From a virus (taxonomy: Duplodnaviria > Caudoviricetes), in IMG/VR virus record IMGVR_UViG_3300044961_000667: a stretch of 64,000 bases of DNA; one strand, 5' to 3'. Positions 4,707-54,917 of the stretch are shown in pieces. The notes below the pieces were generated by a model. The model was not told where the DNA came from. It did no database searches and worked only from the letters and a program-made list of their open reading frames with translations. A program made the translations under genes and the position numbers. Position 1 is the stretch's first letter; each line of letters begins with the position of its first letter.

Positions 4707-4720
4707 TGCTCACCTCTCGT

Positions 4721-4732
4721 GCAATCGATTGC
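4721..4732 (-). promoter_or_regulatory. Palindrome GCAATCGATTGC copy 1 (candidate late promoter)
   Basis: Perfect 12-bp palindrome just upstream of SD GAGGTG and GTG start at 4706. Confidence 0.7.
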
Positions 4733-4919
4733 GCCCTACCGCCAGCCCTGAAGCAACTCGTCGAGATCGACCCATTCGCTGGACTGCTCGGGTCGCCTCT
4801 CAGAGCCTACCTCTTGCCAGAAGGACTTGGTGAGGCGCTCGCGACGAGAGTCGCCCTTCTGAGTGTCTCCGCGAGGGGCCGCCCAGCCTCCCCAGGGGAT
4901 GCTGGAGCCTTCCGCCTGC

Positions 4920-13018: not shown

Positions 13019-13034
13019 GCGCAATCGATTGCGC
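13019..13034 (-). promoter_or_regulatory. Palindrome GCGCAATCGATTGCGC copy 2
   Basis: 16-bp perfect palindrome upstream of AAGGA and ATG 13005. Confidence 0.7.
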
Positions 13035-16107: not shown

Positions 16108-18225
16108 TTACGTCCCCAGTGCCGAAGCAGCTTTCGCCTGCTTCGCCTTGAAGGCCCGATCGAACTCCTTCATGTCGACCTGGATCACCACGGGCCGGTC
16201 GGCCAACTTCGAGATGGTGCTCACCGCCGCCGAGTCCAGCGTCGTGCTGGTCGGCTGGACCGACATCTGCGGCTTGGGCTGAGGAGGCAACAGGCCGGGC
16301 GTCGAATTCTGCTGCGAGAACGACTGCGTCGGCGCCTGCTGAGGAGGAAGCGGCTTCACGACGCCCGGCGCACCACCCTGAGGCACCCCCTGAGGCTTCG
16401 TCAGCGGGTTGTGCGTCATGTCGTAGTACCAGTCCGACATCTTCCCGCCGATGTCGACCGCCTGCTTGGCGCCCTTCTGCATCGCGCCGATCATCCCGCC
16501 GCTGGCCACGTTGACGATCTTGCCGAGAATCGTGTCCTGATCGACGAGCGCCTTCAGCGCCGCCCAGATCAGCCCTCCGATGCCCTTCGCGAGCCCAACG
16601 AAGAGCGGCGTCCAGTCCACCTTCCCCAGGAGGTCTCCAACCTTCTCCACGCCAGCGGCGAGGACGGCATCGAACTTCTGCCCGTTCTCCTTGCTCGTGA
16701 GGAACTTCCAGAAGTCCTGCGCCAACCCCACCAGTCCGTCCCACAGGTACTGCCAGGGGAACGACTCCTTGATGATGCCCCAGATCTCCTTGAACGCCGC
16801 GCCCACCGAGTCGACCAGGTTCCCGAACGCGGCCTTCACTGCCTCCGCCTTGGGCTTCATGTCCCCAGGGAAGACGACGTTGATCAGCTCGGCAAGGCGC
16901 TCAACCGGCCCGCCCTTCTTCGCCAACGGCGTGATGACGTTGTTCAGGAACTTCATGCCGACGTTCACCAGCGGCCGGAACGCGACCTCCAGCTTCAGCA
17001 GCATCGCTCCCAGGCGCATCTTCATCGCCTGCATCCCGCGCTCGATGCGCTCCGCGTACGCGGCTTTCTTCGCCTCGGCCTCCTGCTGCTTCATCAGGCC
17101 AGCGGACTTCGCGAGCGCCTTCGGGAGATCCTTCCCGAAGACACCCTGCACCTTGCCCCAGCCCTTGTAGATGAGCTGGGTCGTCTTCGGCCCGAACGAC
17201 TTCTCGATGAAGGTGCGCAGTCGCGCCTGTTCACCCTGCGAGAGCTTCGACGCTTTCCCGACGACGTTGGACATCTGGGAGATGAACTGCACCGGGTCCT
17301 GGGCACCCTCCTTGACCGACTTCATGCCCTTGCCGACGTCGCGGAAGAGAACCGACAGATCTTCCGTGAGCCCGCCCAGGCCATCGCCAAGCCCTGCGAA
17401 CGCCTGCGACATCTCCTTCGAGTTGGAGGCCATCAGCTCGAAGAACTCCGTCGCCTGCCCAGCAGCTTCCTCCGCCGGCAGCCCGAGCCCCTTCGTGAAG
17501 GCCGCGCCCAGCTGCAGCACCGACAGCGAGGTCTTCTTCATCTGGTCGGGGGTCAGCTTCAGGAACGACAACTTGTCCTGCACGTTCAGCATGATCTTCG
17601 GCAGGTTCTCGATGCCGATGGGGATGTTGCCGAACGCCTTCTGCGTGGCCAGGGCCTGATCCATCAGCCCCTCCATCGCCTTGTCAGTGAGCCCGATGCT
17701 CGTCTTCGCCGTCTCGAAACTGCCGACCTGCTGAGGCGACATGCCGAACGTCTTCATCACGGAGACGGTCTTGCCGAGCTTCTTCATCGCCTCGTCGAAG
17801 CCGATGCCGGTGGACAGCAGCTCCTTCAGAACCTCGCGCGACTCGTCGAACTCCGCACCGGTGCCAGTGCTGGCCTTGATGATCTCCGAGTTGGCACGCC
17901 TCATCTGGTCGGCAGTCAGCCCAGCCTGGGCGCCCAGGAGGGCGCTCTTCTTGTTGAAGTCGAGCAGCAACCCTCGACCTTCGCGAGCCATGTCGACCAA
18001 CCCGCTGACGATGCTGGCGATGCCGCCGGCGATCATGGTGAGCCCGCCCGTGGTGAGGCCGGCAACCATTCCTCCCAGCGCCAGGCCCGCCGATGCGGCT
18101 CCCTTGGCCAGCCCACCGACCTGAGTCGTGACGGCGCCGACGGCCTTGCCCAGCTTCTTCACGACGGCGGTCATGGAGTCTTTGGCGGTGTAGACAACGC
18201 CAAAGCCGACGTCTTTCTGGCTCAT
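16108..18225 (-). CDS. Tape measure protein
   Basis: 705 aa, Ala/Gly/Lys helical; lies between tail chaperone and LysM gene. Confidence 0.9.
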   Translation of the reverse strand: MSQKDVGFGVVYTAKDSMTAVVKKLGKAVGAVTTQVGGLAKGAASAGLALGGMVAGLTTGGLTMIAGGIASIVSGLVDMAREGRGLLLDFNKKSALLGAQAGLTADQMRRANSEIIKASTGTGAEFDESREVLKELLSTGIGFDEAMKKLGKTVSVMKTFGMSPQQVGSFETAKTSIGLTDKAMEGLMDQALATQKAFGNIPIGIENLPKIMLNVQDKLSFLKLTPDQMKKTSLSVLQLGAAFTKGLGLPAEEAAGQATEFFELMASNSKEMSQAFAGLGDGLGGLTEDLSVLFRDVGKGMKSVKEGAQDPVQFISQMSNVVGKASKLSQGEQARLRTFIEKSFGPKTTQLIYKGWGKVQGVFGKDLPKALAKSAGLMKQQEAEAKKAAYAERIERGMQAMKMRLGAMLLKLEVAFRPLVNVGMKFLNNVITPLAKKGGPVERLAELINVVFPGDMKPKAEAVKAAFGNLVDSVGAAFKEIWGIIKESFPWQYLWDGLVGLAQDFWKFLTSKENGQKFDAVLAAGVEKVGDLLGKVDWTPLFVGLAKGIGGLIWAALKALVDQDTILGKIVNVASGGMIGAMQKGAKQAVDIGGKMSDWYYDMTHNPLTKPQGVPQGGAPGVVKPLPPQQAPTQSFSQQNSTPGLLPPQPKPQMSVQPTSTTLDSAAVSTISKLADRPVVIQVDMKEFDRAFKAKQAKAASALGT

Positions 18226-18245: not shown

Positions 18246-18410
18246 CTATCGCCTCGACCGCTCTTCTTCGAGGTCCATCTTACGCTGCAAGAGGCGCTTC
18301 CGTCGCATGACGGGGATGGCCATGGTCTCCGCCGGCGTCCATCCCCACATTTCGGCGAAGTAGAAGACCTCTGCTTCTAGGGCTTCGACGTCGCCGACGG
18401 GAAGAAAAAA
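18246..18410 (-). CDS. -1 frameshift extension (GT/E'-like) of tail assembly chaperone
   Basis: Slippery T TTT TTC at 18410-18404 in the chaperone frame; -1 frame reads FLPVGDVEALEAEVFYFAEMWGWTPAETMAIPVMRRKRLL to stop at 18246. Confidence 0.8.
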   Translation of the reverse strand, partial: FFLPVGDVEALEAEVFYFAEMWGWTPAETMAIPVMRRKRLLQRKMDLEEERSRR

Positions 18411-19129
18411 CTCGGCTCCGACGGGCTCACCTCGATCTCGAACTCGTGCTGGCACGAGACGCACGTCGCCTCGACATCGGTCTCGAACTCCGCCTCAGTC
18501 CCACGCCACTGATCGCGGATGAAGTTGCGCTCCGAGGACGGCAGCGCACGCAGCTCGTCGTGGCCCGGCTTCTTGCCGTCGATCTTGGACACCCGCAGCT
18601 CCATCGCGAGCGTGGCGACCTCGGTCTTCATCTTGGCCGACTTCTCGGCGGCCTCCTTCTGCTCGACGCCCGTCATCACCTTCATCTCGACGAGGCGGCC
18701 ACGAGGAGTCTTCACCTCGTACACCCGACGTCCAGGATCCTTGGCCGGGTGACGCTCCAAGGTGTCGAGGTCGATCTGCTTCCACTGCTTCTGCTTGCAG
18801 TTCGGGCACTCCACCTGGAACCGGTAGAGCGAGCCACACGACACCTTGCGAATCTCCACGAGCAGCTGCGAACGATCGGCGACCGGCAGAGACAGCACCA
18901 TCGTCGAGATGACGCCCTTGTCCTTCACGCCGTCGAAGTCGATCACGCAGTTGCTCATGATCTCCTGCAACTTGTCGAACAGCGTCTTTCCCGACGAGGT
19001 GATGATGTCCTCCTCGACGCCGGTCATCTCAGAAATGGTCACCTTCCTCAGGAGCGTGCCGTCGTCCTTCCGGTAGCCCGACAGCAGCTCGAAAGAGGCG
19101 ACGCTCGACTTGGCTTCTTCGGAGATCAT
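18377..19129 (-). CDS. Tail assembly chaperone (G-like), Zn-ribbon containing
   Basis: ISEMTGVEEDII; VADRSQLLVEIRKVS; CPNC and CVSC; immediately upstream of tape measure. Confidence 0.85.
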   Translation of the reverse strand: MISEEAKSSVASFELLSGYRKDDGTLLRKVTISEMTGVEEDIITSSGKTLFDKLQEIMSNCVIDFDGVKDKGVISTMVLSLPVADRSQLLVEIRKVSCGSLYRFQVECPNCKQKQWKQIDLDTLERHPAKDPGRRVYEVKTPRGRLVEMKVMTGVEQKEAAEKSAKMKTEVATLAMELRVSKIDGKKPGHDELRALPSSERNFIRDQWRGTEAEFETDVEATCVSCQHEFEIEVSPSEPSFFFPSATSKP

Positions 19130-19149: not shown

Positions 19150-19165
19150 GCGCAATCGATTGCGC
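19150..19165 (-). promoter_or_regulatory. Palindrome GCGCAATCGATTGCGC copy 3
   Basis: 16-bp palindrome upstream of SD GAGGA and ATG 19129. Confidence 0.7.
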
Positions 19166-19209: not shown

Positions 19210-21000
19210 CTACTTGGAGGCGTCGAGAACGCTCTTGACGAAGTGAGTCGCCTCCGCGGTCTCCTGCCGGCGCTTCTTCATCCAGTCGTCGAACGACATC
19301 TCGGGGCCAAGCTGGTCGTCCTTCCCGGCCCACTTGGTCCACAGGTAGTCGAAGTCGGGATCGACGTCTTCCTTGAACGCGTACGGCGAAGGACCGCCCA
19401 GCTCGAACTCCGCCTTCTCGGGGTTCGACATCACCGTGACGAAGTCGGTCACCCAGGAGAGTCCTGGCTCGATGGTGGGCGGCTGCACCTCAGCCTCGTT
19501 GACGTACCCCACACAGATGTGCGGCACGAAGTCGAACGGGCTGCTGTACTCGATTCCCGCCGCAGCGATCGCCCGAACGATGTCGGTACGAAGGGCCGAC
19601 AGGCCCACCGCCGACGGAACCACGTACACCGGCACGCGACCATCGCTGTTCTTGGTGGCGGCGAACTTCCCAGAGCCCGTCAGCGTGAACTCCAACGGGG
19701 GATGCGTGGCCACCACCTCGGCCACCGCCTTCTTGATGCGCTCGAACGCGTCAGGCGGGTGCTTCGACTTGTTGCCGTAGTACGCCAACGTGATGTGTGG
19801 GCCAACACCGTTGTCTCGCGGTTCCCCACGCGCGTACTGCGACATGATCTTCGCGCCCGTCTCAGGCGGAAGCATGATCGCCACCCACAGGCTGCCCTCG
19901 TGGTCCTCCGTCGTGAACCTGGCGTACGGCTGAAGCGGGTGATCCTTCACCGGCTTCACGTCGGGCATCGGTCGACGCAGCATCGGCGGATACTGCTCTT
20001 CATCGCCACCACGCGGACTCCGAGCGTCACCCGGAAGCGTCGTGATGAGCGTCGAGTCGGGCATCGGGTCTTCGACCTTCACTCCGCCCATCGCCTGCTC
20101 GAACTTCCGCGCGAAGAACTTCTCGGCGTCATCGGCCGACACGAGGAACGACGGCAAGCCCACCGCCTCGGTCACGTCCGCTGGGTGCACCGGCACCGGC
20201 GCCGCAGGCGCATTCGGGCCAACCCATCCACAGTCAGGGCACGTCCAGGCATCTCTCCCGTCGTCGTACTCGATCTGAGACTCGCAGGCCGCGCTCTCCT
20301 GATGCCTGCGCATCGCAGCCGACTCCGCATCGACGCTCTCAGCCATCGGCTTCGGGTACAGGCGAAGGCGCTGGAGTGAGTGCGGACCGTCGTCGCCCAT
20401 GTCGACGTCAACCAGCTTCGACCCAGAGCTGGCGGCCAACTCGGCGTGCATTCGATCGGCGGGCGGCGTGCGACTGTGCTTGCTGACGATCTTCCCCGTC
20501 TTGCGGTCTACGGACCCCTCTCCCGACGCCAGGATCATCCCGTGCTTCAACAGCCAGTTCACGGTCTTCGCCACCAGCTTGCGGCCCATCCCCTTCTCAC
20601 CAGAAACGTTGGCGAGGTCGCTGATGAAGGCCAAACGCTTGCCTTCGACTTCGATGTCTCCGGTCGACAACCCCATCTCGGCCATCACCTGGCCGTCGGG
20701 GCTGATCAGCATGGCGAACAGATCGTAGCTGCTGTGGTTCTTGTCGACATCCAACTCCCAGCCATCACCAACCGACTCGCGCTGAGGCAGCTTCCCTTTG
20801 GCCAGCTGGCGGTTGAACTTCTTGAACTGCTTCTCCTTGGACTTCTTGTCGTCCCAGTTGCCCCACGGCTTGATGCTTCCGCCGCCAGCACCAGGGGCAA
20901 CGCCACCAAGCGGAACGGCGACGGTACCGACGTTCGCGGCAGTGGTCTGCTCGTTGCGAACGACCGCCTCCAGCTCTCGAATCAGTTCGTCGATCTTCAT
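19210..21000 (-). CDS. Multidomain protein: GNAT-like + Zn ribbon + 2H phosphoesterase (Acb1/LigT-like)
   Basis: Likely start ATG 21000 (MKIDELIRELE); ISDLANVSGEKGMGRKLV GNAT motif A-like; WTCPDCGW; PHITLAY and PHICVGY 2H motifs. Confidence 0.75.
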   Translation of the reverse strand: MKIDELIRELEAVVRNEQTTAANVGTVAVPLGGVAPGAGGGSIKPWGNWDDKKSKEKQFKKFNRQLAKGKLPQRESVGDGWELDVDKNHSSYDLFAMLISPDGQVMAEMGLSTGDIEVEGKRLAFISDLANVSGEKGMGRKLVAKTVNWLLKHGMILASGEGSVDRKTGKIVSKHSRTPPADRMHAELAASSGSKLVDVDMGDDGPHSLQRLRLYPKPMAESVDAESAAMRRHQESAACESQIEYDDGRDAWTCPDCGWVGPNAPAAPVPVHPADVTEAVGLPSFLVSADDAEKFFARKFEQAMGGVKVEDPMPDSTLITTLPGDARSPRGGDEEQYPPMLRRPMPDVKPVKDHPLQPYARFTTEDHEGSLWVAIMLPPETGAKIMSQYARGEPRDNGVGPHITLAYYGNKSKHPPDAFERIKKAVAEVVATHPPLEFTLTGSGKFAATKNSDGRVPVYVVPSAVGLSALRTDIVRAIAAAGIEYSSPFDFVPHICVGYVNEAEVQPPTIEPGLSWVTDFVTVMSNPEKAEFELGGPSPYAFKEDVDPDFDYLWTKWAGKDDQLGPEMSFDDWMKKRRQETAEATHFVKSVLDASK

Positions 21001-21001
21001 C

Positions 21002-21574
21002 TCACGCTCCGATGGCGTACTCTTCCCAGTACTCGGGCTTGATCTCCAGCTCCTGCAACGAAATCGCGCTGGACGACGCATCGAAGTCGCTTCCCACCTT
21101 GTACCTCGTCGGCACGCACCCGTGGAGCACCCAGGCTTTCCCTGGGATCCGAGTGTACTGCGTCCCGAGGGCCACGCTGCCCACCGGGTTCATCGACGTG
21201 AAGTGCACCAGCAGCAAGTTCTTCCGAACTGAGCTGCCGGCGCCGGCGGCCAACAGAGCCGGCAACGCCCCGGAGTTCTGCTTGGTGAGCGCCGCCTTGT
21301 CTCCGCTCAGCGCAGCGACGATCCATCGCCAGAAGTCGCTGTCGAAGAACTGAACGCCGCGGGTCAGCGTGATCGAGTTCACTGCCGCCCTGGTGACGAC
21401 AGTCCTCGGGAAGTGCCACGTCCCCTCTCGGATGTCGTGGGTCTCGACGGTGATCTCAGGCGCAGTGATGGCGCTGAACCCGAACACGGGCAGCAGCACT
21501 GGCGTCGGGAACGAGATGTCCGTGAGCCAGAACTGGTACGCCTGCATGTAGTCCAGCACCCGCGAGTTCGCCAT
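21002..21574 (-). CDS. Tail tube protein 2 (T4 gp19 family)
   Basis: GFSAITAPEITVETHDIREG...ITLTRGV...FWRW; DFDASSSAISLQELEI. Confidence 0.9.
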   Translation of the reverse strand: MANSRVLDYMQAYQFWLTDISFPTPVLLPVFGFSAITAPEITVETHDIREGTWHFPRTVVTRAAVNSITLTRGVQFFDSDFWRWIVAALSGDKAALTKQNSGALPALLAAGAGSSVRKNLLLVHFTSMNPVGSVALGTQYTRIPGKAWVLHGCVPTRYKVGSDFDASSSAISLQELEIKPEYWEEYAIGA

Positions 21575-21660: not shown

Positions 21661-22185
21661 CTAGGCGTTCGCTTCGACCTTCTCGCCACCCACGACCTCG
21701 ATGTCGAAGGACTCGTAGTCGAGGGTCATCTCGGTGATGGAGATGTCCGACGACGTCGCGTCGAGGTCGCTGCTCACCTTGTTCGACGTGGGGAACGCGT
21801 TCCACAGCGTGATCTTGCGAGCCGGCTGCTGCGCGTTGTCGCGGTGGAAGTGGTTGATCGTCACGTCGGCCCGGTACTCGCCGCCCTTGATGACCAGGTA
21901 GATCCACTTCGCCAGCGCCGTCTCAGCGCGGGCCACGCCACGCGACAGGGTGATCGGCTCGAACGTCGGCACGCCCGGCTGCTTCTTCGTGTACGTCCAG
22001 ATGCCCTCGCGGTACGTCGCCGACTCGACGGTGACGTTGGGCATGCCGCACGCGTTGAAGCCGCCCTGCGGGAAGCGATCGCCTCGGGGGGCCGAAGTGC
22101 CCAGGAAGGTCCCGCCGCCGGCCTTCACGTCGGTCACCTGGAAGCGGAAGTTGTGGAGGAAGTCGCTGTTCTCTGCGCGTGCCAT
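21661..22185 (-). CDS. Major tail tube protein (T4 gp19 family)
   Basis: DFLHNFRF...GFNACGMPNVTVESATYREG...KQPGVPTFEPITLSRGV...LWNAFP...DLDATSSDISITEMTL. Confidence 0.92.
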   Translation of the reverse strand: MARAENSDFLHNFRFQVTDVKAGGGTFLGTSAPRGDRFPQGGFNACGMPNVTVESATYREGIWTYTKKQPGVPTFEPITLSRGVARAETALAKWIYLVIKGGEYRADVTINHFHRDNAQQPARKITLWNAFPTSNKVSSDLDATSSDISITEMTLDYESFDIEVVGGEKVEANA

Positions 22186-22793: not shown

Positions 22794-24854
22794 TTACCCG
22801 CCGGTGTTGGTCTTCTGCTGGAACCTGAACCGGACGAACTCGGCCGGCTTGTTGGGCGCGACGCCGACGTCGACCACCACCTGGCCAGCGTCGATGACTT
22901 CCTGCGGGTTGTTCTTCTCGTCGACCTGCACGAAGAAGGCGTCCGCGGGCTTCGTGCCGGCGAAGTACCCGTTGCCGAAGAGCACCAGCAGGAACGACGT
23001 CATCTGCAGGTTGATCTTGGTCCAGAGGTCCGGGCCGTTGTTCTCGAACACGATCCAGTGCGTCGAGTTGAACGTGCTCTTCTCCAGGAACATCAACAGC
23101 CGGCGGGCGTTGATGTAGCGGTACAGCGGGTCGAGCGCGAGCGTGCGCACGCCCCAGACCGCGACGCCCGTCTGCGCCGAGCTGATCAGCGGGTTGATGC
23201 GGTTCGGGTACACCGTGTCCCGCTCGCCCTTGTCGAGCACCCGCTCCAGGCCCACCTGGAAGTTCAGCTTGCCGTCGTCGATGCCGCCAGGCGACTTGCC
23301 GACGTTCTTGTTCGTGTCGGTGCGCGCGTAGACGCCAGCGACGTGGCCCAGCGGCGGGATGTTCAGCGGCCGGTTGGTGAGCGGGTCGGTGACCGTGATC
23401 CACGGGTAGTACAGCGCCGCGTAGCTCGTGTTCGGCACGAACTGGAACCGGATGTAGTCGACGGCCTCCTGCGGCTTCAGGCCGGAGGGCGTCGTCAGGA
23501 TGACGAACTTGTCCTTCCGCGACTCGGCGTAGCTGATCTGGTCGCCCGCCACCGTGACGTTGCCAGCGAAGTCGGGGATGCACAGCTGCATGATCTCATC
23601 GGGCCGGTCGAACGCGTAGATGCCGCGACGATCAGCCTCCAGACTGGGCGACGAGACCTCGTTGCGAGTCACGCCGGCGACGCCATCAGAGCCCGCGGAG
23701 AAGGTGAACGTCACCGACGCCGACGGAGCCTTGAAGTAGTTCGCCGTGACGGCGGCGGCGGCAGGCGTGGCCGCACCGAGCAGCTTCACGTTGTACGCGC
23801 CGGTCGTGTAGTCGATCGTGTTGACGCCGGTCGGATCCACGCCCGAGCCGGTGAACTTGCCCTGGCCGTTGTCGGTCGCGATCACCACCGACTGGCAGAG
23901 GATGTTCACCGTCTTCTTGAAGACGGGGACGTTGGCCAGGGTTCCGGTGAACGTCTGCGCCAGGCCCGTACCCGTGCCCACTGCGACGCCAGTGAACGGC
24001 GTCCCGTTCAGCACCGTCGGCACCGCGTTCTGGCCAGGCGTCTTCACGACGATCAGGTCGGAGCCCGAGTTCACGACGGACGGCATGTACTCGGTGTCGT
24101 TCGCGTCGGTGAACGACATGCCGGTGAAGGTCTCGACGAGCTGGTACACCGCGTCGGCGTCCTTCTTGAACACCAGCAGGTCGTGCTTGGTGTACTTGCC
24201 CAGCGCGTAGTCGACGTAGTCCTCGTTGTTGCGGACCATCACCTGCAGATCGTTGCCCCACACGCCCTTCGAGCTGGCGTCGAGGTCCCAGATCTGCTGC
24301 TGGTACGAGATGCGCACCGGAGTCGCGATCGCCGGGGCAACAGAGAAGGTCACCGACACCGCGCCCGTCGCGTAGTTGATCGTGCCGGCGGAGATGCCAG
24401 CGCCCGTGATGAGCCCGGCGCCGTCGTCCGTCCCAGTCACACTGCCCGCGGTGACGGTCACACTGCTGGTGCGCACCGGCAACCCCGTAGCAGTGTGAGT
24501 GAATACGGTCGCCACGCCATCGCCAACAGAGGGCGTCATCGAGACGTTGGTGAACGGGTTGACGATGAACCCGTGGGCCAGCGCCGCATCAGACGCCACG
24601 ACTCGCGTCATGAAGCCACGCGAGCCGCCGTTGGCGAAGAAGGCCGCCACGTTCAACGGAACGAAACTGTCCGGCGTGAAGTCGCCGAAGATGGCCTTGA
24701 AACCACCGAACGAGGTGATCAGCGTGGCGAGGTCCGTCGGACCTTCCTTGCTGTAGCCGATGATGCCGATCGACGAGGTCGACACGCCCTGGATGACGCG
24801 TGGGCCAGCCGCAACCTCTTCGATGAAAATGCCTGGGCTCAGAAATTCGGGCAT
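22794..24854 (-). CDS. Tail sheath protein with two inserted beta-modules
   Basis: MPEFLSPGIFIEE; FFANGG; AALYYPWI; PPLGHVAGVYARTD; VWGVRTL; YINARRL; PNKPAEFVRFRF. Confidence 0.97.
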   Translation of the reverse strand: MPEFLSPGIFIEEVAAGPRVIQGVSTSSIGIIGYSKEGPTDLATLITSFGGFKAIFGDFTPDSFVPLNVAAFFANGGSRGFMTRVVASDAALAHGFIVNPFTNVSMTPSVGDGVATVFTHTATGLPVRTSSVTVTAGSVTGTDDGAGLITGAGISAGTINYATGAVSVTFSVAPAIATPVRISYQQQIWDLDASSKGVWGNDLQVMVRNNEDYVDYALGKYTKHDLLVFKKDADAVYQLVETFTGMSFTDANDTEYMPSVVNSGSDLIVVKTPGQNAVPTVLNGTPFTGVAVGTGTGLAQTFTGTLANVPVFKKTVNILCQSVVIATDNGQGKFTGSGVDPTGVNTIDYTTGAYNVKLLGAATPAAAAVTANYFKAPSASVTFTFSAGSDGVAGVTRNEVSSPSLEADRRGIYAFDRPDEIMQLCIPDFAGNVTVAGDQISYAESRKDKFVILTTPSGLKPQEAVDYIRFQFVPNTSYAALYYPWITVTDPLTNRPLNIPPLGHVAGVYARTDTNKNVGKSPGGIDDGKLNFQVGLERVLDKGERDTVYPNRINPLISSAQTGVAVWGVRTLALDPLYRYINARRLLMFLEKSTFNSTHWIVFENNGPDLWTKINLQMTSFLLVLFGNGYFAGTKPADAFFVQVDEKNNPQEVIDAGQVVVDVGVAPNKPAEFVRFRFQQKTNTGG

Positions 24855-27239: not shown

Positions 27240-27836
27240 TTACGAGATCCGGCTCACGAGGGTCGCGGGCCACTCCATCACGCGACCCTTGAGCTTGTGC
27301 CCTTCGCTCTCGATGCGAACCTTCAGCTTGCCGTCGACCGCCGACTCCGCCTGCACGCTCGCGCGGAGCATGGACTCCGACGTCGTCTGCGTGGCCGGCA
27401 CCGTCACCGCGACCGCCTCGCCCACCTTCCAGGGGATGTACCCCATGGTCGCGCCGGTCATCTTGGCCGCGCCGGGGACGTTGCCGACCGGCTCGTCCTC
27501 AGCAGCCCGAACGTCCGCGGAGCGACGCTCGCCGATGATCGAGCTGATCTCGCGCATCGACGACTCGAAGGCGTTCTCCTCATTCTTGTCGTCATCCTTC
27601 TTGTCGTCCTCGACGTCCTCGGCCTTCATCGCCTGGACGGCGGGCGGGTTGATGGTGCCCTGCTGCTCATCGCCAGCTGCGGTCCCAACGAGCGCGACGT
27701 CACCCGTCTTCAGCGGAATCTCGCCGATGCCGGCGTCCTCGCTGTAGCGATCGTCCTCGCTGCGGCGCTCGCTGAGAATGGAGGTCACCTCCTCCATCGT
27801 CGCCTTCGCTCGATCTTCGATCTTGGTCTGGTTCAT
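27240..27836 (-). CDS. Hypothetical acidic protein with internal repeat, candidate internal head protein
   Basis: Start ATG 27836 (ATGA overlap); MEEVTSILSERRSED and MREISSIIGERRSAD repeat. Confidence 0.55.
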   Translation of the reverse strand: MNQTKIEDRAKATMEEVTSILSERRSEDDRYSEDAGIGEIPLKTGDVALVGTAAGDEQQGTINPPAVQAMKAEDVEDDKKDDDKNEENAFESSMREISSIIGERRSADVRAAEDEPVGNVPGAAKMTGATMGYIPWKVGEAVAVTVPATQTTSESMLRASVQAESAVDGKLKVRIESEGHKLKGRVMEWPATLVSRIS

Positions 27837-29405: not shown

Positions 29406-29408
29406 GGT

Positions 29409-29420
29409 GCAATCGATTGC
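29409..29420 (-). promoter_or_regulatory. Palindrome GCAATCGATTGC copy 4
   Basis: Minus strand reads TAAGGCGCAATCGATTGCACCATG. Confidence 0.7.
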
Positions 29421-29423
29421 GCC

Positions 29424-29816: not shown

Positions 29817-30148
29817 CTGGCCGCCTTCGCGAGCTTCTCGTACTCGCGCTGCTTCTTCGGGTTGTCCTTCTCCATCGCGTGCTTCATGTTTGCCCGCGAG
29901 CCCTTGCCGGTCGACTTCACGGCCTCTCCTCGCCCGCCGGACTTCAGGTAGCCCGAACGGCGAAGATGCGCATGGCAGATGTTCCGCGAGCCACGCGCCT
30001 TGGCCCGATCGCTTCCCGACAGCTTCTTGGAGACCGCCACCATGCAGTGGCGAACCTGGGCGCCGGTCTTGTCGGGCTTCTCCGCTCCGGAGTCGCCAGT
30101 CGTGTCCTCGAACAGTTGGTCGAGGCTGATGTACGCGCTCTCGCTCAT
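29813..30148 (-). CDS. Small basic protein, candidate internal head protein
   Basis: LDQLFED leader followed by K/R-rich body with CMVAV and NICHAH. Confidence 0.5.
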   Translation of the reverse strand: MSESAYISLDQLFEDTTGDSGAEKPDKTGAQVRHCMVAVSKKLSGSDRAKARGSRNICHAHLRRSGYLKSGGRGEAVKSTGKGSRANMKHAMEKDNPKKQREYEKLAKAAR

Positions 30149-30540
30149 CCGGAATGCCTCTCAAGATACTCGGCTGCAAGGCGAAGCACATCAGGTCGCT
30201 CCTTGAACTTCGCCAAGCCGTTGTTGCAGAAGTCGCAGAGCAACGAACGGAGCTTCCCAGTCTTGTGATCGTGGTCTACCGAGAAGAACTTCTTGTTCGC
30301 CCCTGGGTCGCCTGACCCACAAATCGCGCAGACGCCTCCCTGTGCCGCGAGCATCGTCTCGTACTGCTGGTGAGTGATGCCGTACCGACGCCGCAGGTTC
30401 CAGTTGCGGAAGTACATCGGATCTTCAGCCTGCCGCTTGGCAGACTTCGCACGAACCTTGGCAGCGTTTCGCGCGTAGTACGCCCTCTCGGCCACCCTCG
30501 CCCGCTCTCGCTTTTCGCTTTGAAGGATCGCAGTTCGCAT
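30145..30540 (-). CDS. Free-standing HNH endonuclease, endonuclease VII family
   Basis: RYGITHQQYETMLAAQGGVCAICG...VDHDHKTGKLRSLLCDFCNNGL. Confidence 0.92.
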   Translation of the reverse strand: MRTAILQSEKRERARVAERAYYARNAAKVRAKSAKRQAEDPMYFRNWNLRRRYGITHQQYETMLAAQGGVCAICGSGDPGANKKFFSVDHDHKTGKLRSLLCDFCNNGLAKFKERPDVLRLAAEYLERHSG

Positions 30541-31788: not shown

Positions 31789-33240
31789 TTACAGGTTGAC
31801 GACGTTCACCTGGCCGTAGAACTCGCTGCGCAGCACCTTCTTGGCGTAGCGGGTGCGCATGCCCTTCCGGAACGAGAAGTCGCCCGGATCGAGGAACGTC
31901 GGGGTGACCTGCAGGGGCACGAACGGCGCCCAGGCGTAGCCGGCGTCGAGGAACGACGGCATCTTCAGGCCCACGAGGATCTTGCCCTTGTAGGTCGGGT
32001 ACCGCGTGTCGAAGAACGGGTCCTTGTAGACCATCCACTTCTTCTGGAGCACGCCGGCCTTCACGATGCCGTAGTTGAACGCGTACTCCTTCGGGTCCTC
32101 GCTCACGAACGTGGGCAGAGTCTCCAGGAGGGCCACCACCTCGGGCGAGGTGATCAGGAAGTTGCCCGGCGCACGCAGGGTCTTCTTGTGGATCAGGTTC
32201 GACACGGTCGCCAGCGGCGTCACGATGTCGCGCAGGTGGTCCTGCTCGCTGATGCCGGCCGGCACGTTGCGGTCGAACGACGCCACCGAGCCCGTCGAGA
32301 CGCTGACGAGGTCGTTGATGATCTCGCGGTCGAGTTCGAGCGCGATCTCCTGGGCGATGCCGCCGACCAGCTCGGTCTCCGCGTCGAGACCGTGGAACGC
32401 GCGGAGGTCATCGGCGGCCTCGCTGCTCCACAGCGCCTTCAGCTTGCGGGTCGTGGCGCGGATCTCCTGGAGCTGGATGTCCAGGTTGATCTGGGGCACC
32501 GAGCTGTTGTTCTCGGTGTTGTAGGTGTAGTCGATCGTCACCCGCGTGCCGAGGTCAGGGGCGTTGGCCGCCTGGAACGTCACGCTGAAGGCGCCCGACG
32601 TGAAGTTGATCGAGCCGGCCGCGATGCCGCCACCGGCCGCGAACGTGCCGTCACCGTCGACGTCAGGGTTGACCGACTTGGCCACGGAGCCCGTGGTCCA
32701 GTTCACGACGAGCGTGCCCGACTTGATCGGGAGCCACGAAGCCGTGCCGGTGAAGGGCCCGAGCGACGCGCCGTCGCCGGCCGCGCCGATCGCCTCGGCC
32801 GTCACGTTCTCGGACGAGTAGTCGAGGTCGAACTTCTGGACGAGGTTGTCGCCCGCGGTGATGCGGCCCTTCGTCGAGCCGTACTTGTACTCGAAGAAGA
32901 AGACCGCGCCGACCGGTGCCGTCATCGGCTGCACCGACACGATGTCGTTGGCGATCAGGTTCGGGAAGACCCGGCGGAGGATCGGGAAGATGAACTTGGT
33001 GAACGGGCCGACGTTGGCCGCACGCGTGTCCTCGGTGAGAGAACGGAGATGCTCCATCTCGTTCTCCAGCAGGATCGCCGTGACCGCGGCACGGTGACGA
33101 CCGGCCTGGGTCTTGGTGTCGATGCCTTCCAGCATCGGACCCCACTTCTTGCTCAGCATGCGGACGTAGCTCTCGTCCGCGATCGTGCGCTTGGCTTCAC
33201 CGTTCTCCATCAGCTGCCGCGCCGTGTTCGGGTTTCCCAT
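31789..33240 (-). CDS. Major capsid protein, T4 gp23-like
   Basis: VQPMTAPVGAVFFFEYKY; ATTRKLKALWS; ELDREII; GYAWAPFVPLQ; FSFRKGMRTRY. Confidence 0.97.
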   Translation of the reverse strand: MGNPNTARQLMENGEAKRTIADESYVRMLSKKWGPMLEGIDTKTQAGRHRAAVTAILLENEMEHLRSLTEDTRAANVGPFTKFIFPILRRVFPNLIANDIVSVQPMTAPVGAVFFFEYKYGSTKGRITAGDNLVQKFDLDYSSENVTAEAIGAAGDGASLGPFTGTASWLPIKSGTLVVNWTTGSVAKSVNPDVDGDGTFAAGGGIAAGSINFTSGAFSVTFQAANAPDLGTRVTIDYTYNTENNSSVPQINLDIQLQEIRATTRKLKALWSSEAADDLRAFHGLDAETELVGGIAQEIALELDREIINDLVSVSTGSVASFDRNVPAGISEQDHLRDIVTPLATVSNLIHKKTLRAPGNFLITSPEVVALLETLPTFVSEDPKEYAFNYGIVKAGVLQKKWMVYKDPFFDTRYPTYKGKILVGLKMPSFLDAGYAWAPFVPLQVTPTFLDPGDFSFRKGMRTRYAKKVLRSEFYGQVNVVNL

Positions 33241-33334: not shown

Positions 33335-34900
33335 CTACTTCCGCACGCCGGAGAGCGCGAGGATCTCTTCCATCTGCATCTTGCCGCCGAACTCGGGCGG
33401 GAGGTCGCCCAGGAGGGCCGACCCGGCCTGGCGCGAAGGCGCCGAGCCGTTCTTGTTCTCGGTGAGCTGCTCACGCGCACGGCCCAGGCGCTTGCGGATG
33501 CGCTCGGCCTCGTCGTCGCTGCGCGACGCCATGCGGTTGGCGATCGACTCGTACAGCGAATCGACCTCTTCCTTGTTCTGGGGGCGCTTCGACTCGATGA
33601 GCTGCACGATCTCCTTCGCCCGCGCGTGACCACGCGTCTTGCGCTCGACGTAGAGCGCCACGGCGACGTCACGACCGACCTGCAGCGACTCGGAGAGCGA
33701 CTTCTGGAGCTTGGCCTTCTCCTCCTTCAGCTTCTCGACCTCGCCCTTCTGCACGCTCTCGACCTTCACGGCCTTGGCGATCTCCTGCGAGACGGCCTCC
33801 ACCTTCGCGTCGATCGCCTTCACCGACTCGTACTGGCGGACGTCGCCGACCAGCTTCGCGATGGTCTCGGCCTTCGCCTCGCTCTTCAGGCGGCGCTCCA
33901 GGTGCAGCTTGTACGCGGCCTCCTTCGCCACGTCGCACATGCGCCCGAGCTGCTCCTCCAGGCCCTTGATGCGGAGGTTCGCCTCCGACACCTGGGTCTG
34001 GAGCTTGCCGATCTCCTCGTCCTTCTGGGACGCGACCTTCTGCACGTCCTCCGGCAGGGCCACGAGACCGAGGGCCGACTTCACCTGGTCGAGGGCGAGG
34101 CGGGCGCCGGCGATGGTCGGGTCGGACATCACGGCCGCCTTCGCCTCCTCGAACGCCTTCGCCTTCAGGTCGGCGACGGCCTGGACCATCTCCGACTTCA
34201 TCGACGACTTGAGTGCATCCAGCGCGGAGGACTGCTCCGCCTTGACCGCCGAGGCGATGGCCTCGTACGCAGACGGGTTCGCCTTCTTCAGGTCCTCGGC
34301 GGTGATCTTGGTCAGGTCCATGTCGTCGTTCTCCTGCTGCGGGCTGCGCGGGCCGACCGCAGAGCGGCTTTCCGCGTGAATGCTGGGGTACGAGGTCGTG
34401 TTCGCCGGCTCGGCGACAAAATCGAACGTCATCAGCCGGTAGTCTTCCTGGACGACCTCAACTCCATCAGGTCCAGGCGACGTGGTTCCGTAACCGCGGC
34501 TCGACACGCCAACGGCTCCGCCACCCTTCAGGATGGCCTTCAGGTTGCGACCGGCGTCGGTGTCGAGAATCTCGGCCTCGCCGATGACGACGTCGCCTTC
34601 CAGCTCCAGGCTGGTCAGCAGGTGACTCACCCGCGACAGCTTCGTGCGACCATCGTTCGGGTGATCGACCTCGCCGAAGACCTTGCGCTCCGAGAGAGCA
34701 CCCCGGAGCGACTCGATCTCACGCTCCCAGAGCGAGCGCGGGTACATGCGCTTGTTCTCGGTCGCCACGTCGGCGCGAGCGAACTCGCCACGAGCGGTGA
34801 TCTTCTTGCCGTCAGCGGACTCGGTGAGCTGCCACTTGACGAGGCCACCACCCGAGCCGGGGACGTGAATCAGTCTGTCGATGATGAGCTGCTTGTTCAT
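33335..34900 (-). CDS. Prohead protease (T4 gp21-like) fused to coiled-coil scaffold
   Basis: ENKRMYP; GEVDHP; GVSSRGYG; TFDFVAEPA; about 300 aa coiled-coil C-terminus. Confidence 0.93.
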   Translation of the reverse strand: MNKQLIIDRLIHVPGSGGGLVKWQLTESADGKKITARGEFARADVATENKRMYPRSLWEREIESLRGALSERKVFGEVDHPNDGRTKLSRVSHLLTSLELEGDVVIGEAEILDTDAGRNLKAILKGGGAVGVSSRGYGTTSPGPDGVEVVQEDYRLMTFDFVAEPANTTSYPSIHAESRSAVGPRSPQQENDDMDLTKITAEDLKKANPSAYEAIASAVKAEQSSALDALKSSMKSEMVQAVADLKAKAFEEAKAAVMSDPTIAGARLALDQVKSALGLVALPEDVQKVASQKDEEIGKLQTQVSEANLRIKGLEEQLGRMCDVAKEAAYKLHLERRLKSEAKAETIAKLVGDVRQYESVKAIDAKVEAVSQEIAKAVKVESVQKGEVEKLKEEKAKLQKSLSESLQVGRDVAVALYVERKTRGHARAKEIVQLIESKRPQNKEEVDSLYESIANRMASRSDDEAERIRKRLGRAREQLTENKNGSAPSRQAGSALLGDLPPEFGGKMQMEEILALSGVRK

Positions 34901-39697: not shown

Positions 39698-42600
39698 TCA
39701 GCCTTTGACAGGAAGCAGCGGAGCCCAGTTGTCCTTCGCGCCTGGCTCTTCCTTCGGCCGCATGGTCTCGCCCTTCTCGTTCCTCGGGAGAACCCAGTCG
39801 ATGTCCTCGACAGTGGCGTCTCGGTACTCGCTGATGCCAGGGGAGGCAACCAGCGGCTGGGGCGCCAGCCTGGTGGTCAACGACATCGTCACACCGGCGA
39901 GTCCGTCGGCAACGTCTTTCGACCCATCCTGGGGGTGATCGACCTTCTTGCGCTTCGGGTTCCACTCCAGTTGCCGCAACTCCTTCTCCAAGTGCGGGAA
40001 CGGCAAACAGTCGAACCGCTCCTCGTTGATCGCGTTCTTCAGCAGATCGTACGCGTCCGACGAGGAGTCGACCGACAACACCTCCGCCTTGTACCCCTTC
40101 GAGTTCAGGTTCTGCCTCATGTCGGCGCTGTTGTGCGACATGAAACCGTTGGCCAGATAGGACGGATCGTCCTCTACCTCCAAGTCGAAAACATCAGCTT
40201 CACCATCAGCCTCAACGCTCACCACCCTCGCGAAGATTCTTCGTCCGACAACACCAACATGCTTCTCAAGCTCAACCTGCTTGCGGGAGTACGAGAACCC
40301 AATCCTCTCCAGGAACTTCCGCCTGGCGCCACGTACTCCCACCACATACTGGACACCATCCTTGACGTAATCGCCTGGGTGTCCTCGCTCCATGATCACC
40401 AGTTTCGACTCGATGCCAAAGTCACATCGCAGCATCAACCTCACCTGGTCGGCCAGATCCCGATGCTTCGTCGACAACGAAACGTAGCCGTCCAATCGCC
40501 CAACATTTCCGTCGGTCGCGAACAGGCCCCTCAGGAATGACGCCTTCACGGCACGACTACCCCTGAGCACGGCCTCCGGAACAAGAGGTTTTCGCAGGCC
40601 ATTCTGCTCCATCCATCTCACCAGCCACCGAGCACTCACGGACACAGTCCCGAACCCAGCCCCGTCTACACCGCGATACTCTGGCGCCACACCAAACAGC
40701 CTCATGAATACAGCCTGGGCATCGACAGCCTCGTCGTCGGTGACGGTTAGCCTGACGGAGTCTTCGCCGATATTTCCGTCGCCCCAAACGAGACCAAGCC
40801 ATTCGGCCAGGGCCGGTCCCATCCGAACCGGAAGCGACCACTCCGAGAGCACACCTGCGCGAGCAGGACTCCAGCCGAGGTCTCGCTTGTCACCGACCAG
40901 CTCAACATCGGGCGCGTCCATCTCGACAGGCGACGACGCCATCCGCACCACGTCGCCTGCGCGAATCTCGTCCAGCCTACGCCACTCCCAGATTGGTTCG
41001 CGAGTCCAACCAAATTCGGATTCGCTCTCAGGCCCCCATCCAACTTGCACCTCAATCCGGTGTCGCCCGGTGCCGACCAAGCTGTCTCCGTCGGCCGTCG
41101 ACAATTTCAGTACCGGCTGTCGACCAAAGGCCCAAACATTCTTCACTGGTTTTGGCCCTGCGCGCGACTGAACTATGTCGCCAATCAGGACTTCCTCGAT
41201 CGGCAACAAGCCGCGGCTTGTGCTCACTCTCGTTCCAGCAGCCAAGCACTGGTACGTGTCCATCGTCACCAGCCCGATGTGGAAACCGTGCTCGGTCAGC
41301 TCGTAGATGAGGCGCCGCACTTCGGCCATCGGGATCTCCCCCCGGTCCGGCGGAACGATGCGCAGCGCCAAGTCGATCACGATGAACGGAACCATCTCCT
41401 TCGACTTCTTGCCGCTCGACCAGTTCGTCCTCACCACCTCGACCATCTTGGCGACGTGCCCCATCGCGAAGCCGTACGAGTCGTCAGAAAGCGCAGGGTC
41501 GAGATGGATGTGTCGCTGCGCGTCGGGATTGAACCGCGGCTTGTAGCTCAACAACGTCTTCCCGTTGACCGACCGACGCTGACGCTCCACGCACAACGCC
41601 GACCAATCGAGGGCCAGCGGCGTGGTGGGATCCCACTCCAAGCCTCCCGGCCGCGGCATGGGGCGCTTCGACGACAGCGCCTTGATGATCTTCTCCTTGT
41701 TCCTGATGTACGGCCGAATCGAGTCGGTCGCGATGCCGGCGATCTCGCGAAGCGAGCCGTCCAGGTCCTCCTCGAAGTCTGAACGAAAGTCGATCGGCAC
41801 CTCGATGATGCGTTGCTTGCCTTGAGCGACGGTGTCGGGCACCGGCTCCGAATCAGCAAGCACTCGGCTCGACACGTCGTCGGTCCCGATGACGACACGG
41901 AACTTCTGATCGCTGTACTTCTTGACGTCCCACAGCGCGTACTCGCGAACGAAGATGCGCGGGTTGTCGGCCGACTCTCGGATCTTGCGCTCGGTGAAGT
42001 CGGTCGTGCCCTTCTTCGACGAGATCGTCATCAACATGCCTGGCATCTGGCCACCACGCAGGAAGCGGGACTTCATGCGGCGCAAGATGCTGGAGTACAG
42101 CTGCGAGCCCTTGTCGATGTGCCCCCACCGCGCGTGCGACGCCTTCTGCTCGCGGGTGAACGACATGAAGTTCGTCTCGTCGATGGCTGCACCAAAGACG
42201 TTTCGACCGATGACGCTGTTGTCGGCGGACGACGCCGGCACCGCCCAGATGTTCTTCGGAAAGCGAAGCGCCTCCATCGAGCGGTGACACTTGAACTTCT
42301 CGTTGAAGTACGGGCTCACGATCAGCTTCTGCGCGAGGCCCTCCAACAGCGTCGCCATCGCCGTCTTTTCGTTGACGCTGATGCCGGCGAACACGATCTC
42401 AGAACCAGAAGCCAACCCGTACGAACGCTGCGGGTTCCTCAGGCAGCTCATCTCGTAGATCTGCCGAGCGATGACGATCTCGGCGAAGGTCGACTTGCCC
42501 CAGCCGATGGCGCCGCCGAGGACGACCTCGTGGTACGAGCCAGTGAACAGCTCGACGACGTCCTCCTTCAGCTTGGGCCACAGGCCCTTCGCGACTTCCC

Positions 42601-42841
42601 CGAAGTAGTAGTCGTCGTCGAGCCAGGTGCGGACGTCAACAACCTCGCGCTCGTACTCCGCTTCAGAGGCCAGCTTCAGGAGCGTCTTCACCCCATCCTG
42701 GGTTTCCTGCGCCTCGCGAAGAATGGTCTCGACAAAGACCTTCTCCTCCGGAGTCAGATCCTTGTAGTCGCTTTCGAGGAGCTTGATGTCCTCCTGCGGC
42801 GTACGAACGCTGATCTGTCTGCCACCGATGTCGACGATCAT
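39698..42841 (-). CDS. terL: Terminase large subunit, intein-containing
   Basis: Walker A GGAIGWGKS, Walker B AAIDETNF, nuclease HIHLDPALSDD and KDVADGLAG; about 674 aa after splicing. Confidence 0.95.
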   Translation of the reverse strand: MIVDIGGRQISVRTPQEDIKLLESDYKDLTPEEKVFVETILREAQETQDGVKTLLKLASEAEYEREVVDVRTWLDDDYYFGEVAKGLWPKLKEDVVELFTGSYHEVVLGGAIGWGKSTFAEIVIARQIYEMSCLRNPQRSYGLASGSEIVFAGISVNEKTAMATLLEGLAQKLIVSPYFNEKFKCHRSMEALRFPKNIWAVPASSADNSVIGRNVFGAAIDETNFMSFTREQKASHARWGHIDKGSQLYSSILRRMKSRFLRGGQMPGMLMTISSKKGTTDFTERKIRESADNPRIFVREYALWDVKKYSDQKFRVVIGTDDVSSRVLADSEPVPDTVAQGKQRIIEVPIDFRSDFEEDLDGSLREIAGIATDSIRPYIRNKEKIIKALSSKRPMPRPGGLEWDPTTPLALDWSALCVERQRRSVNGKTLLSYKPRFNPDAQRHIHLDPALSDDSYGFAMGHVAKMVEVVRTNWSSGKKSKEMVPFIVIDLALRIVPPDRGEIPMAEVRRLIYELTEHGFHIGLVTMDTYQCLAAGTRVSTSRGLLPIEEVLIGDIVQSRAGPKPVKNVWAFGRQPVLKLSTADGDSLVGTGRHRIEVQVGWGPESESEFGWTREPIWEWRRLDEIRAGDVVRMASSPVEMDAPDVELVGDKRDLGWSPARAGVLSEWSLPVRMGPALAEWLGLVWGDGNIGEDSVRLTVTDDEAVDAQAVFMRLFGVAPEYRGVDGAGFGTVSVSARWLVRWMEQNGLRKPLVPEAVLRGSRAVKASFLRGLFATDGNVGRLDGYVSLSTKHRDLADQVRLMLRCDFGIESKLVIMERGHPGDYVKDGVQYVVGVRGARRKFLERIGFSYSRKQVELEKHVGVVGRRIFARVVSVEADGEADVFDLEVEDDPSYLANGFMSHNSADMRQNLNSKGYKAEVLSVDSSSDAYDLLKNAINEERFDCLPFPHLEKELRQLEWNPKRKKVDHPQDGSKDVADGLAGVTMSLTTRLAPQPLVASPGISEYRDATVEDIDWVLPRNEKGETMRPKEEPGAKDNWAPLLPVKG
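40130..41248 (-). mobile_element. 373-aa intein with LAGLIDADG homing endonuclease
   Basis: N-splice DTYQ/CLAAGTRV, C-splice FMSHN/SAD; WLGLVWGDG and FLRGLFATDG endonuclease motifs. Confidence 0.95.
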
Positions 42842-43576: not shown

Positions 43577-43594
43577 CGCGCAATCGATTGCGCG
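43577..43594 (-). promoter_or_regulatory. Palindrome CGCGCAATCGATTGCGCG copy 5
   Basis: 18-bp perfect palindrome upstream of terS start 43564. Confidence 0.7.
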
Positions 43595-54899: not shown

Positions 54900-54917
54900 C
54901 GCGCAATCGATTGCGCG
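54900..54917 (-). promoter_or_regulatory. Palindrome CGCGCAATCGATTGCGCG copy 6
   Basis: 18-bp palindrome immediately followed by AGGAG and ATG 54888. Confidence 0.7.

Follow-up and report, generated by a model that had tools for sequence, protein, structure and literature searches.

A ThpR/LigT-type 2H phosphoesterase protein in the tail gene cluster of a phage with a T4-type head: a candidate virion-delivered effector

The gene and its modules

A stretch of 64,000 nucleotides (nt) from a large, uncultured tailed phage (IMG/VR record IMGVR_UViG_3300044961_000667; hereafter the window, with positions counted from its first letter) carries within its tail gene cluster a minus-strand gene for a multi-domain protein of 596 amino acids (aa). 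The protein, P0002, combines a 2H phosphoesterase domain of the ThpR/LigT type with conserved N- and C-terminal modules and a leader that resembles the N-termini of T4 head proteins, and it may be an effector that is loaded into the virion and delivered to the host. The gene lies between a tail tube gene and a PF12322 gene at the position given in the first-pass annotation of this DNA. The surrounding open reading frame (ORF) on the minus strand spans 21081 to 19210 and its plausible start is the ATG at 21000, which is preceded by a GGAG ribosome-binding site and overlaps the TGA stop codon of the upstream gp19-like tube gene. The gene and the modules of its product are as follows.

19210-21000, minus strand: gene of P0002, 596 aa and stop codon
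20950-21000, minus strand: N-terminal leader, aa 1-17 (MKIDELIRE...NE), a candidate T4-type propeptide or capsid-targeting segment
20773-20949, minus strand: conserved N module, aa 18-76, Gly-rich and then Lys-rich, ending in an invariant P-x-R-E-S
20341-20772, minus strand: GNAT-like insert, aa 77-220, with a motif-A-like loop GEKGMG at aa 134-139
20215-20295, minus strand: zinc-ribbon-like knuckles, aa 236-262; AAC replaces CxC in the first, which is degenerate
19963-19986, minus strand: motif PMLRRPMP, aa 339-346, present in all three homologues
19381-19905, minus strand: 2H phosphoesterase domain, aa 366-540, with H402-I-T404 and H494-I-C496 and an invariant T/L-E-D/E junction (E365) ahead of it
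19213-19368, minus strand: conserved C-terminal helical module, aa 545-596, LWT-x-W-x-GK ... DW, with a predicted local distance difference test score (pLDDT) of 85-95

The family is small, with three to four members among about 15 billion proteins. Word-based searches of 5.8 billion proteins returned only the protein itself (P0003), P0004 (563 aa), P0005 (377 aa) and the fragment P0006, and a profile search of viral and JGI metagenome contigs with the full-length alignment gave no match. The alignment of three homologues is strongly conserved across aa 1-76, the mean column identity of the N module being 73%. The C-terminal module likewise has invariant columns, and its motif was found solely in this family among all the loci that were fetched. 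An exhaustive search of 1.84 billion representatives with the N-module profile matched this family alone, and the view of the module as a common loading signal attached to many kinds of cargo was therefore abandoned. A single-sequence AlphaFold model of the whole protein reached a pLDDT of 34.

Two differences in layout were seen among the homologues. P0004 has an additional basic-rich N-terminal extension, aa 1-43 (L004 372-500; R-S-Q-S-Q-R-G-L-F-Y-A-K-A-K-R-G-E), before the shared leader, which is therefore internal in that protein. The motif P-M-x-R-R-P-x-P (L001 about 4087) precedes the zinc ribbon in P0005 and follows it in P0002 and P0004; since it shifts from one side of the ribbon to the other, it may be a movable docking or recognition motif.

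The 2H phosphoesterase domain

The assignment of the 2H domain by Pfam (PF13563, E 5e-14; also PF02834) agrees with the structural model and with the structure searches. The sole NCBIfam match was TIGR02258 at 33.7 bits against an equivalog cut-off of 65.7, and thus below the threshold for a ThpR/LigT equivalog. A profile of three 2H domains matched D. radiodurans ThpR in the PDB (5h7e, E 4e-7), along with PH0099, T. thermophilus LigT and AKAP7-like proteins; the penguinpox cyclic GMP-AMP (cGAMP) phosphodiesterase came at E 0.09, and no Acb1 entry appeared at E <= 10. An AlphaFold2 model of aa 355-596, which includes the C-terminal helices and was built on a 67-sequence alignment, has a pLDDT of 88.7. 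When this model was searched with Foldseek, ThpR/LigT structures ranked at the top (E 3e-8 to 1e-6, target-normalised template-modelling (TM) score about 0.65), followed by YjcG, VP3, AKAP18, Usb1 and a poxvirus phosphodiesterase (rank 28), with the Acb1 entries 7t27 and 7t26 at ranks 43 and 49 (target-normalised TM 0.47-0.52). The first-pass annotation had called the domain Acb1-like and had proposed a Foldseek comparison with Acb1 and LigT. That comparison favours the LigT/ThpR side, with Acb1 structures at rank 43 or lower and the Pfam Acb1 model PF23474 unmatched, and the hhalign alignment to T4 gp57B described below is remote; hence the label is true at the level of the superfamily only.

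The two motifs, H402-I-T at 19795-19797 and H494-I-C at 19519-19521, are exactly where they had been placed. All 67 relatives have both His residues and the first Thr. The third residue of the second motif is Thr in 59 relatives, Cys in 7 and Ser in 1, and the Cys variant occurs in at least three lineages, so that the earlier remark of an HxC in place of HxT/S is confirmed at H494-I-C496 and describes a recurrent state. On these models the protein is placed in the 2H phosphoesterase superfamily, with Cys replacing the Thr/Ser of the second motif, and judged by its residues the domain looks catalytically intact.

Relatives of the domain and their head-protein fusions

A scan of IMG/VR with the 2H domain gave 79 loci, and in nearly all of them the domain lies within a large ORF (median about 740 aa, shortest complete 368 aa, up to 3000 aa). 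Pfam scanning was carried out on 63 of the ORFs, where one ORF may match several models. Portal models matched 12, 4, 2 and 2 ORFs, the prohead-protease models S78, S78_2 and Mu-like_Pro matched 8, 6 and 2, respectively, DUF2213 matched 3 and the MuF model matched 5. Other domains in these ORFs include Arr-type and exotoxin ADP-ribosyltransferases, NUDIX, histidine phosphatase and kinase domains, and PF23474 was matched by 3. Portal, MuF and prohead-protease domains are recurrent fusion partners of this 2H clade.

With 45% identity, L034 is the closest relative; it is a 2H-DUF2213 protein with H-V-C in the second motif, and its gene lies between a large ORF at the portal position (no Pfam match) and the cement and major capsid genes. 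Two other H-x-C members, L099 and L108, are MuF fusions. The matching gene of cultured actinophages comes after the portal gene and the gene for the protease or MuF protein, and the best BFVD matches are large proteins of Gordonia and Microbacterium phages named 'RNA ligase', 'capsid morphogenesis' or 'structural'. Fusions of 2H domains to MuF or portal proteins, predicted to be injected, have been described before (PMC5512222, section 20; PMC9503650, section 3.4.5), and the present survey independently reproduces this observation.

Natural variation and selection

Near-identical copies of the gene were found in runs from at least 10 studies, which include wastewater, activated sludge, bioreactor, microbial mat and soil samples as well as RNA libraries. 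A single 72-kb contig covers the whole stretch. Four other runs that were compared over the region showed no insertions, deletions or joints, and the ORF was intact in each. Among 30 listed variants within the gene, 22 were synonymous and 8 nonsynonymous. All 15 of the strain variants in codons 347-596, which encode the 2H domain and the C-terminal part, were synonymous; one of the synonymous changes, TGT to TGC, falls on the codon of Cys496 and keeps the Cys. By comparison, 6 of the 9 variants in the GNAT-like part were nonsynonymous (Fisher p = 6e-4 for the contrast with codons 347-596). The gene is real and under purifying selection, and its GNAT-like part is under relaxed constraint. Contigs from RNA libraries span the gene; as these sequences are contigs, such coverage is no proof of transcription.

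The leader and the T4-type head genes

Upstream of the tail cluster the phage has genes for a T4-type portal (gp20), an S77 (gp21-type) protease and a gp23-type capsid protein, of which two are of direct interest for the leader.

33335-34900, minus strand: gp21-type prohead protease (S77; PF03420, E 7e-15), 521 aa long (T4: 212 aa), with an extended coiled-coil tail
31789-33240, minus strand: gp23-type major capsid protein (PF07068, E 8e-68)

The C-terminal half of the protease is long, Lys/Glu-rich and coiled-coil-like, and resembles a fused scaffold. The capsid protein carries a junction S-L-T-E↓D-T-R-A-A-N-V-G (arrows mark known or predicted cuts) that aligns with F-L-T-E↓A of T4 gp23, the maturation cleavage site of that protein. 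The leader of P0002 bears two short likenesses to such proteins. The first is to T4 gp24, for which M-A-K-I-N-E-L-L-R-E against M-K-I-D-E-L-I-R-E was the best local alignment (shuffle p about 0.007), KINELLRE and KIDELIRE standing at the same N-terminal position. The second is between N-E↓Q-T-T-A-A-N-V-G (aa 16-25) and EDTRAANVG of the capsid junction of the same phage (p about 0.016). For comparison, T4 IPI starts with M-K-T-F-K-E-F and has I-T-E↓A at residue 19. E9, E11 and E17 are invariant in the family, and I-D-E (aa 3-5) and I-R-E (aa 7-9) fit the L/I-x-E rule. Hence, the two marks of a gp21-type substrate, a genome that encodes an S77 protease and L/I-x-E sites at the N-terminus of the protein, are both present. 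The matches fit a gp21-processed, head-targeted protein whose leader would be cleaved off.

The first-pass annotation had gone further and read Glu-containing linkers as cutting sites that divide the whole protein. These linkers do not stand out from chance, as only 7 of the 42 Glu residues satisfy the T4-type rule [LIVM]-x-E. MAES and VTEA fit the rule, lie in linkers and are unconserved; QRES, ACES, TTED and FKED do not fit it. Two of the six named sites, R-E-S (E75) and T-E-D (E365), are invariant in the family, and the other four are not.

Three other genes of the window were noted in passing. A 198-aa protein (27240-27836, minus strand; no family match) has an internally duplicated leader-like unit, M-E-E-V-T-S-I-L-S-E-R-R-S and M-R-E-I-S-S-I-I-G-E-R-R-S, each copy being followed by a Gly/Pro-rich stretch. 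The 1047-aa ORF at the terminase position (39698-42841, minus strand) contains an intein with a LAGLIDADG homing-endonuclease domain (PF14528, PF14890, Hint). An Endonuclease VII domain (PF02945, E 1e-21; about 30145-30540, minus strand) occupies the C-terminus of an ORF flanked by capsid-region genes and is probably a free-standing small nuclease gene.

The tail cluster around the gene

The genes on both sides of the P0002 gene belong to a tail cluster and are listed here in the order of transcription.

22794-24854, minus strand: sheath, followed by a 187-aa protein of no assigned family and then by the two tube genes
21661-22185, minus strand: a gp19-type tube protein, directly ahead of the second tube gene
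21002-21574, minus strand: second gp19-like tail tube protein (PF06841, E 1e-14), the upstream neighbour
18377-19129, minus strand: PF12322 'T4_baseplate' protein with CxxC pairs, the downstream neighbour
16108-18225, minus strand: tape measure, 3' of the PF12322 gene

The tape measure is followed, on the same strand, by genes for a LysM protein, a gpD-like hub, a gpV spike and gp25. The order tube, tube, P0002 homologue, PF12322 and tape measure is kept in both full-length homologues, P0004 and P0005. In 25 IMG/VR tail clusters with a PF12322 homologue, however, the space between tube and PF12322 genes is absent or filled by unrelated small genes, and the modules of P0002 were not found there in any of the 25; the gene is therefore regarded as an accessory gene in a variable slot and not as a core tail component. 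In two related large phages the slot holds an ORF like a response-regulator receiver and a small RHH-like ORF (L014 6539-6940 and L015 6524-6925, plus strand), and RHH-like ORFs recur directly upstream of PF12322 in L008, L010, L011, L012 and L020.

No DNA-level relative of the window was present among 50,697 phage records, and no paralogue of any module of the protein was found within the 64 kb. Scans for sigma-70 promoters and terminators around the gene gave nothing that exceeded shuffled controls. The following gene is preceded by a 16-bp palindrome, which had been described as its own promoter.

19150-19165, no strand: 16-bp palindrome GCGCAATCGATTGCGC, 20 nt upstream of the start codon of the next gene

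The palindrome is indeed there. The window has six copies of it where 0.72 would be expected; four are exact and two carry a single mismatch. The copies lie at 4719-4734, 13019-13034, 19150-19165, 29407-29422, 43578-43593 and 54901-54916, and every one is intergenic, 2-20 nt upstream of a minus-strand start codon, and abuts the ribosome-binding site. Judged by this placement, GCGCAATCGATTGCGC appears to be a phage-wide start-associated regulatory element, either a promoter or operator or an RNA hairpin.

The GNAT-like segment and the zinc ribbon

GNAT proteins bind acetyl-CoA with a loop of the pattern Q/R-x-x-G-x-G/A after strand 4. The loop G-E-K-G-M-G of P0002 (aa 134-139) and the helix that follows it are compatible with this motif A. 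The segment gave no GNAT family match in Pfam (E <= 10), PHROGs (E <= 1), NCBIfam or PDB sequences. In the ESM Atlas, viral GNAT clusters are the nearest to aa 77-220 by features (score 0.91), and the Atlas's own model of the segment aligns to GNAT folds with a TM of 0.52-0.61. Hence, the acetyltransferase-like reading of the first-pass annotation finds backing from the predicted fold and none from sequence models, and a GNAT assignment is plausible. The segment, about 160 aa long, occurs only in the window protein and is missing from P0004 and P0005; it is a recent, lineage-specific and fast-evolving insert.

The zinc ribbon stood in part. Its WTCPDCGW is present at aa 252-259, but the window protein retains three Cys (C239, C254 and C257) where P0004 and P0005 have four, and members of the family have one or two knuckles. 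A weak match was seen between this segment and an archaeal RPA zinc ribbon (E 0.19).

Proposed role and alternative explanations

The domains and their conservation, the purifying selection and the fusion of the relatives to head proteins suggest that P0002 is a virion-delivered 'polyvalent' effector, with a ThpR/LigT-type 2H phosphoesterase as its conserved payload. The chances that this account is right, including the packaging, the cleavage and the substrate that it supposes, are put at about even. According to this scheme, the protein would be expressed late and loaded into the virion, most likely into the T4-type head, from which it would reach the host together with the DNA. The leader (aa 1-17) would imitate T4-type capsid proteins in their propeptide and cleavage junction and direct the protein to the scaffolding core, after which the gp21-type protease of the phage would trim it. 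The basic N module and the C-terminal helical module may hold the protein in the particle. Upon arrival, the 2H payload would hydrolyse a 2',3'-cyclic or a 2'-5'/3'-5' phosphodiester, and its substrate may be the signalling nucleotides of defence systems (the cyclic oligonucleotide-based anti-phage signalling system, CBASS, type III CRISPR or similar) or the RNA ends left by defence ribonucleases. The GNAT-like segment would be a later, lineage-specific add-on of uncertain activity. The location in a late structural operon suits a packaged protein and not an early cytoplasmic one, and the synteny of both full-length homologues points the same way. As a whole, the interpretation given in the first-pass annotation, that of an anti-defence enzyme packaged and cut by the phage, seems right in spirit and over-specific in the Acb1 identity and in the cutting of a polyprotein at six sites.

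Several aspects weigh against virion delivery. The gene is part of the tail cluster and not of the head cluster, and the RHH and receiver-domain proteins that occupy the slot in related phages are not obviously virion cargo. Pfam scans found no MuF, portal or protease anchor domain in P0002. The similarities of its N-terminus to head proteins span just 8-9 residues and were picked out post hoc, and E17, at the putative junction, has an Arg and no hydrophobic residue at P3. The N-terminus is also without the stricter L-x-x-L-x-E leader pattern of neighbouring small genes, because of which the enrichment of this pattern at gene N-termini of the 19-37 kb region (6/20 against 4/44 elsewhere; binomial p = 0.005 against a background of 8.3%) is not counted as evidence for it. 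The second motif is H-x-C and the enzyme activity of the domain is a prediction; packaging and cleavage are likewise predicted from the sequence.

A different role would be that of a cytoplasmic, non-packaged enzyme of RNA-end healing, in which the 2H domain, like ThpR/LigT, would open the 2',3'-cyclic phosphates left at RNA ends by anticodon nucleases of the host or by other defence RNases, during late tRNA or mRNA repair. The closest solved relatives of the domain are indeed RNA 2',3'-cyclic phosphodiesterases, and TIGR02258 is its single NCBIfam match. The score of that match is, however, far under the ThpR equivalog cut-off, no RNA ligase or polynucleotide kinase was found within the window, and phage 2H domains of this kind are reported never to be linked to RNA ligases (Iyer et al., 2017; PMC5512222). 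Moreover, repair of RNA ends leaves the leader, the N and C modules and the head-protein fusions of the relatives unexplained. This explanation is possible, but unlikely.

The protein could also be a cargo or an assembly factor of the tail, loaded in the tube lumen or the baseplate hub with the tape measure and expelled on contraction, as are the payloads of contractile injection systems. All three phages with the gene have it at the same place, between tube and PF12322/tape-measure genes; in the window its start codon overlaps the stop codon of the tube gene, and the conserved N and C modules are of no known function. These features would agree with such a role. But the slot is empty or has unrelated genes in the 25 related tail clusters, the 2H relatives are fused to head proteins and not to tail proteins, the N-terminus resembles the propeptides of head proteins, and comparison within the window found no similarity of P0002 to the tube, the tape measure or other tail proteins. 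A tail cargo is hence considered distinctly improbable. Equally slim, or slightly more so, is the prospect of its more particular version, a tail-borne enzyme with the private N and C modules as a loading signal that is delivered ahead of the DNA; if true, it would correspond, in a phage, to the payloads that contractile injection systems carry.

A third proposal is that the 2H domain is a specific orthologue of Acb1, the anti-CBASS nuclease that degrades 3'3'-cGAMP and cyclic trinucleotides. An anti-CBASS role is a narrower version of the virion-delivered effector and not an alternative that excludes it. An hhalign comparison of the clade profile with T4 gp57B gave a probability of 88.8% (E 2.5e-6) with both H-x-T motifs aligned, and the Pfam Acb1 model is also matched by 27-62% of the members of the closest viral clusters in the ESM Atlas. 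In T4, 57B (annotated as 'RNA ligase'; L113 3592-4411, which corresponds to T4 genome 73591-74410) has as its immediate neighbours ipI, the gene of an internal head protein that is injected, and 57A, in a region of late morphogenesis genes. Nevertheless, PF23474 is unmatched by P0002 at E <= 0.1 and by all but 3 of the 63 relatives, and neither the Foldseek ranks of the Acb1 structures nor the PDB profile search brings Acb1 near; in addition, the fold does not reveal the substrate. Orthology with Acb1 is accordingly given little credence.

A decaying or selfish accessory gene without current function, for which the variable slot, the very small family, the degenerate zinc ribbon and the relaxed constraint on the GNAT-like part could be cited, is disfavoured and very improbable, since the ORF is intact in all runs compared, the catalytic His residues are conserved and synonymous variants prevail (22 against 8 in the gene, 15 against 0 in the 2H and C-terminal part).

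Comparison with known systems

The nearest concept is that of the polyvalent proteins (Iyer et al., 2017, PMC5512222; 2022, PMC9503650), in which several effector-type domains are combined among virion genes. P0002 likewise has at least two conflict-type domains in such company, as the GNAT-like segment, the zinc ribbon and the 2H domain are encoded in a late tail operon, and it shares the predicted role, which is to be injected together with the DNA and then to act on RNA or against nucleotide signalling. Fusion or adjacency to a head anchor is seen in the relatives (MuF, portal, S78 and DUF2213) and not in P0002, which has a T4-type leader and private N and C modules in place of a fused anchor and whose gene lies in the tail cluster, in a phage whose head is T4-type.

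Among characterised enzymes, ThpR/LigT (PDB 5h7e, 1iuh, 5ldi and 4qak) is the best match in structure and sequence and has the two-His active site in common. P0002 differs in its low identity (~20%), in the H-x-C of its second motif and in the placement of the domain within a 596-aa multi-domain phage protein. The Acb1 proteins of T4 (gp57B) and FBB1 (PMC9117128; PDB 7t26 and 7t27) share the 2H fold, the two His motifs and the phage origin; they are stand-alone proteins of about 150 aa, whereas P0002 is multi-domain and without a PF23474 match, and in the Foldseek ranking they stand behind ThpR, YjcG, VP3, AKAP18, Usb1 and the poxvirus cGAMP phosphodiesterase. The C-terminal domain of rotavirus VP3, ns2 of MHV and the penguinpox cGAMP phosphodiesterase have the same fold (Foldseek E 6e-5 to 1e-3) and use it to destroy immune nucleotides of the host, though they are distant and act in other hosts and on other substrates.

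With regard to loading, the T4 internal proteins IPI, IPII, IPIII and Alt and the gp24 propeptide are processed by gp21, and the phage studied here has homologues of gp20, gp21 and gp23. P0002 is far larger than the internal proteins and has no sequence homology outside the leader.

Significance for phage counter-defence

Enzymes delivered with the virion are a first line of counter-defence because they are active before any phage gene is expressed. Delivery of such an enzyme by the virion is a known theme, which P0002 would follow by an unusual route, and the class to which it would belong is so far only predicted: head-packaged 2H domains have been foreseen from MuF and portal fusions, and no experimental test of them was found in the literature. 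Metagenomes from wastewater and activated sludge commonly contain the phage, and its protein would offer a compact test case, in which an optional GNAT-like insert accompanies a leader and a conserved 2H domain whose H-x-C is unusual. If the proposal is true, the same payload that other phages attach to a fused anchor would be loaded by a T4-type cleavable leader, and a wider set of phage proteins would deserve screening as injected anti-defence factors.

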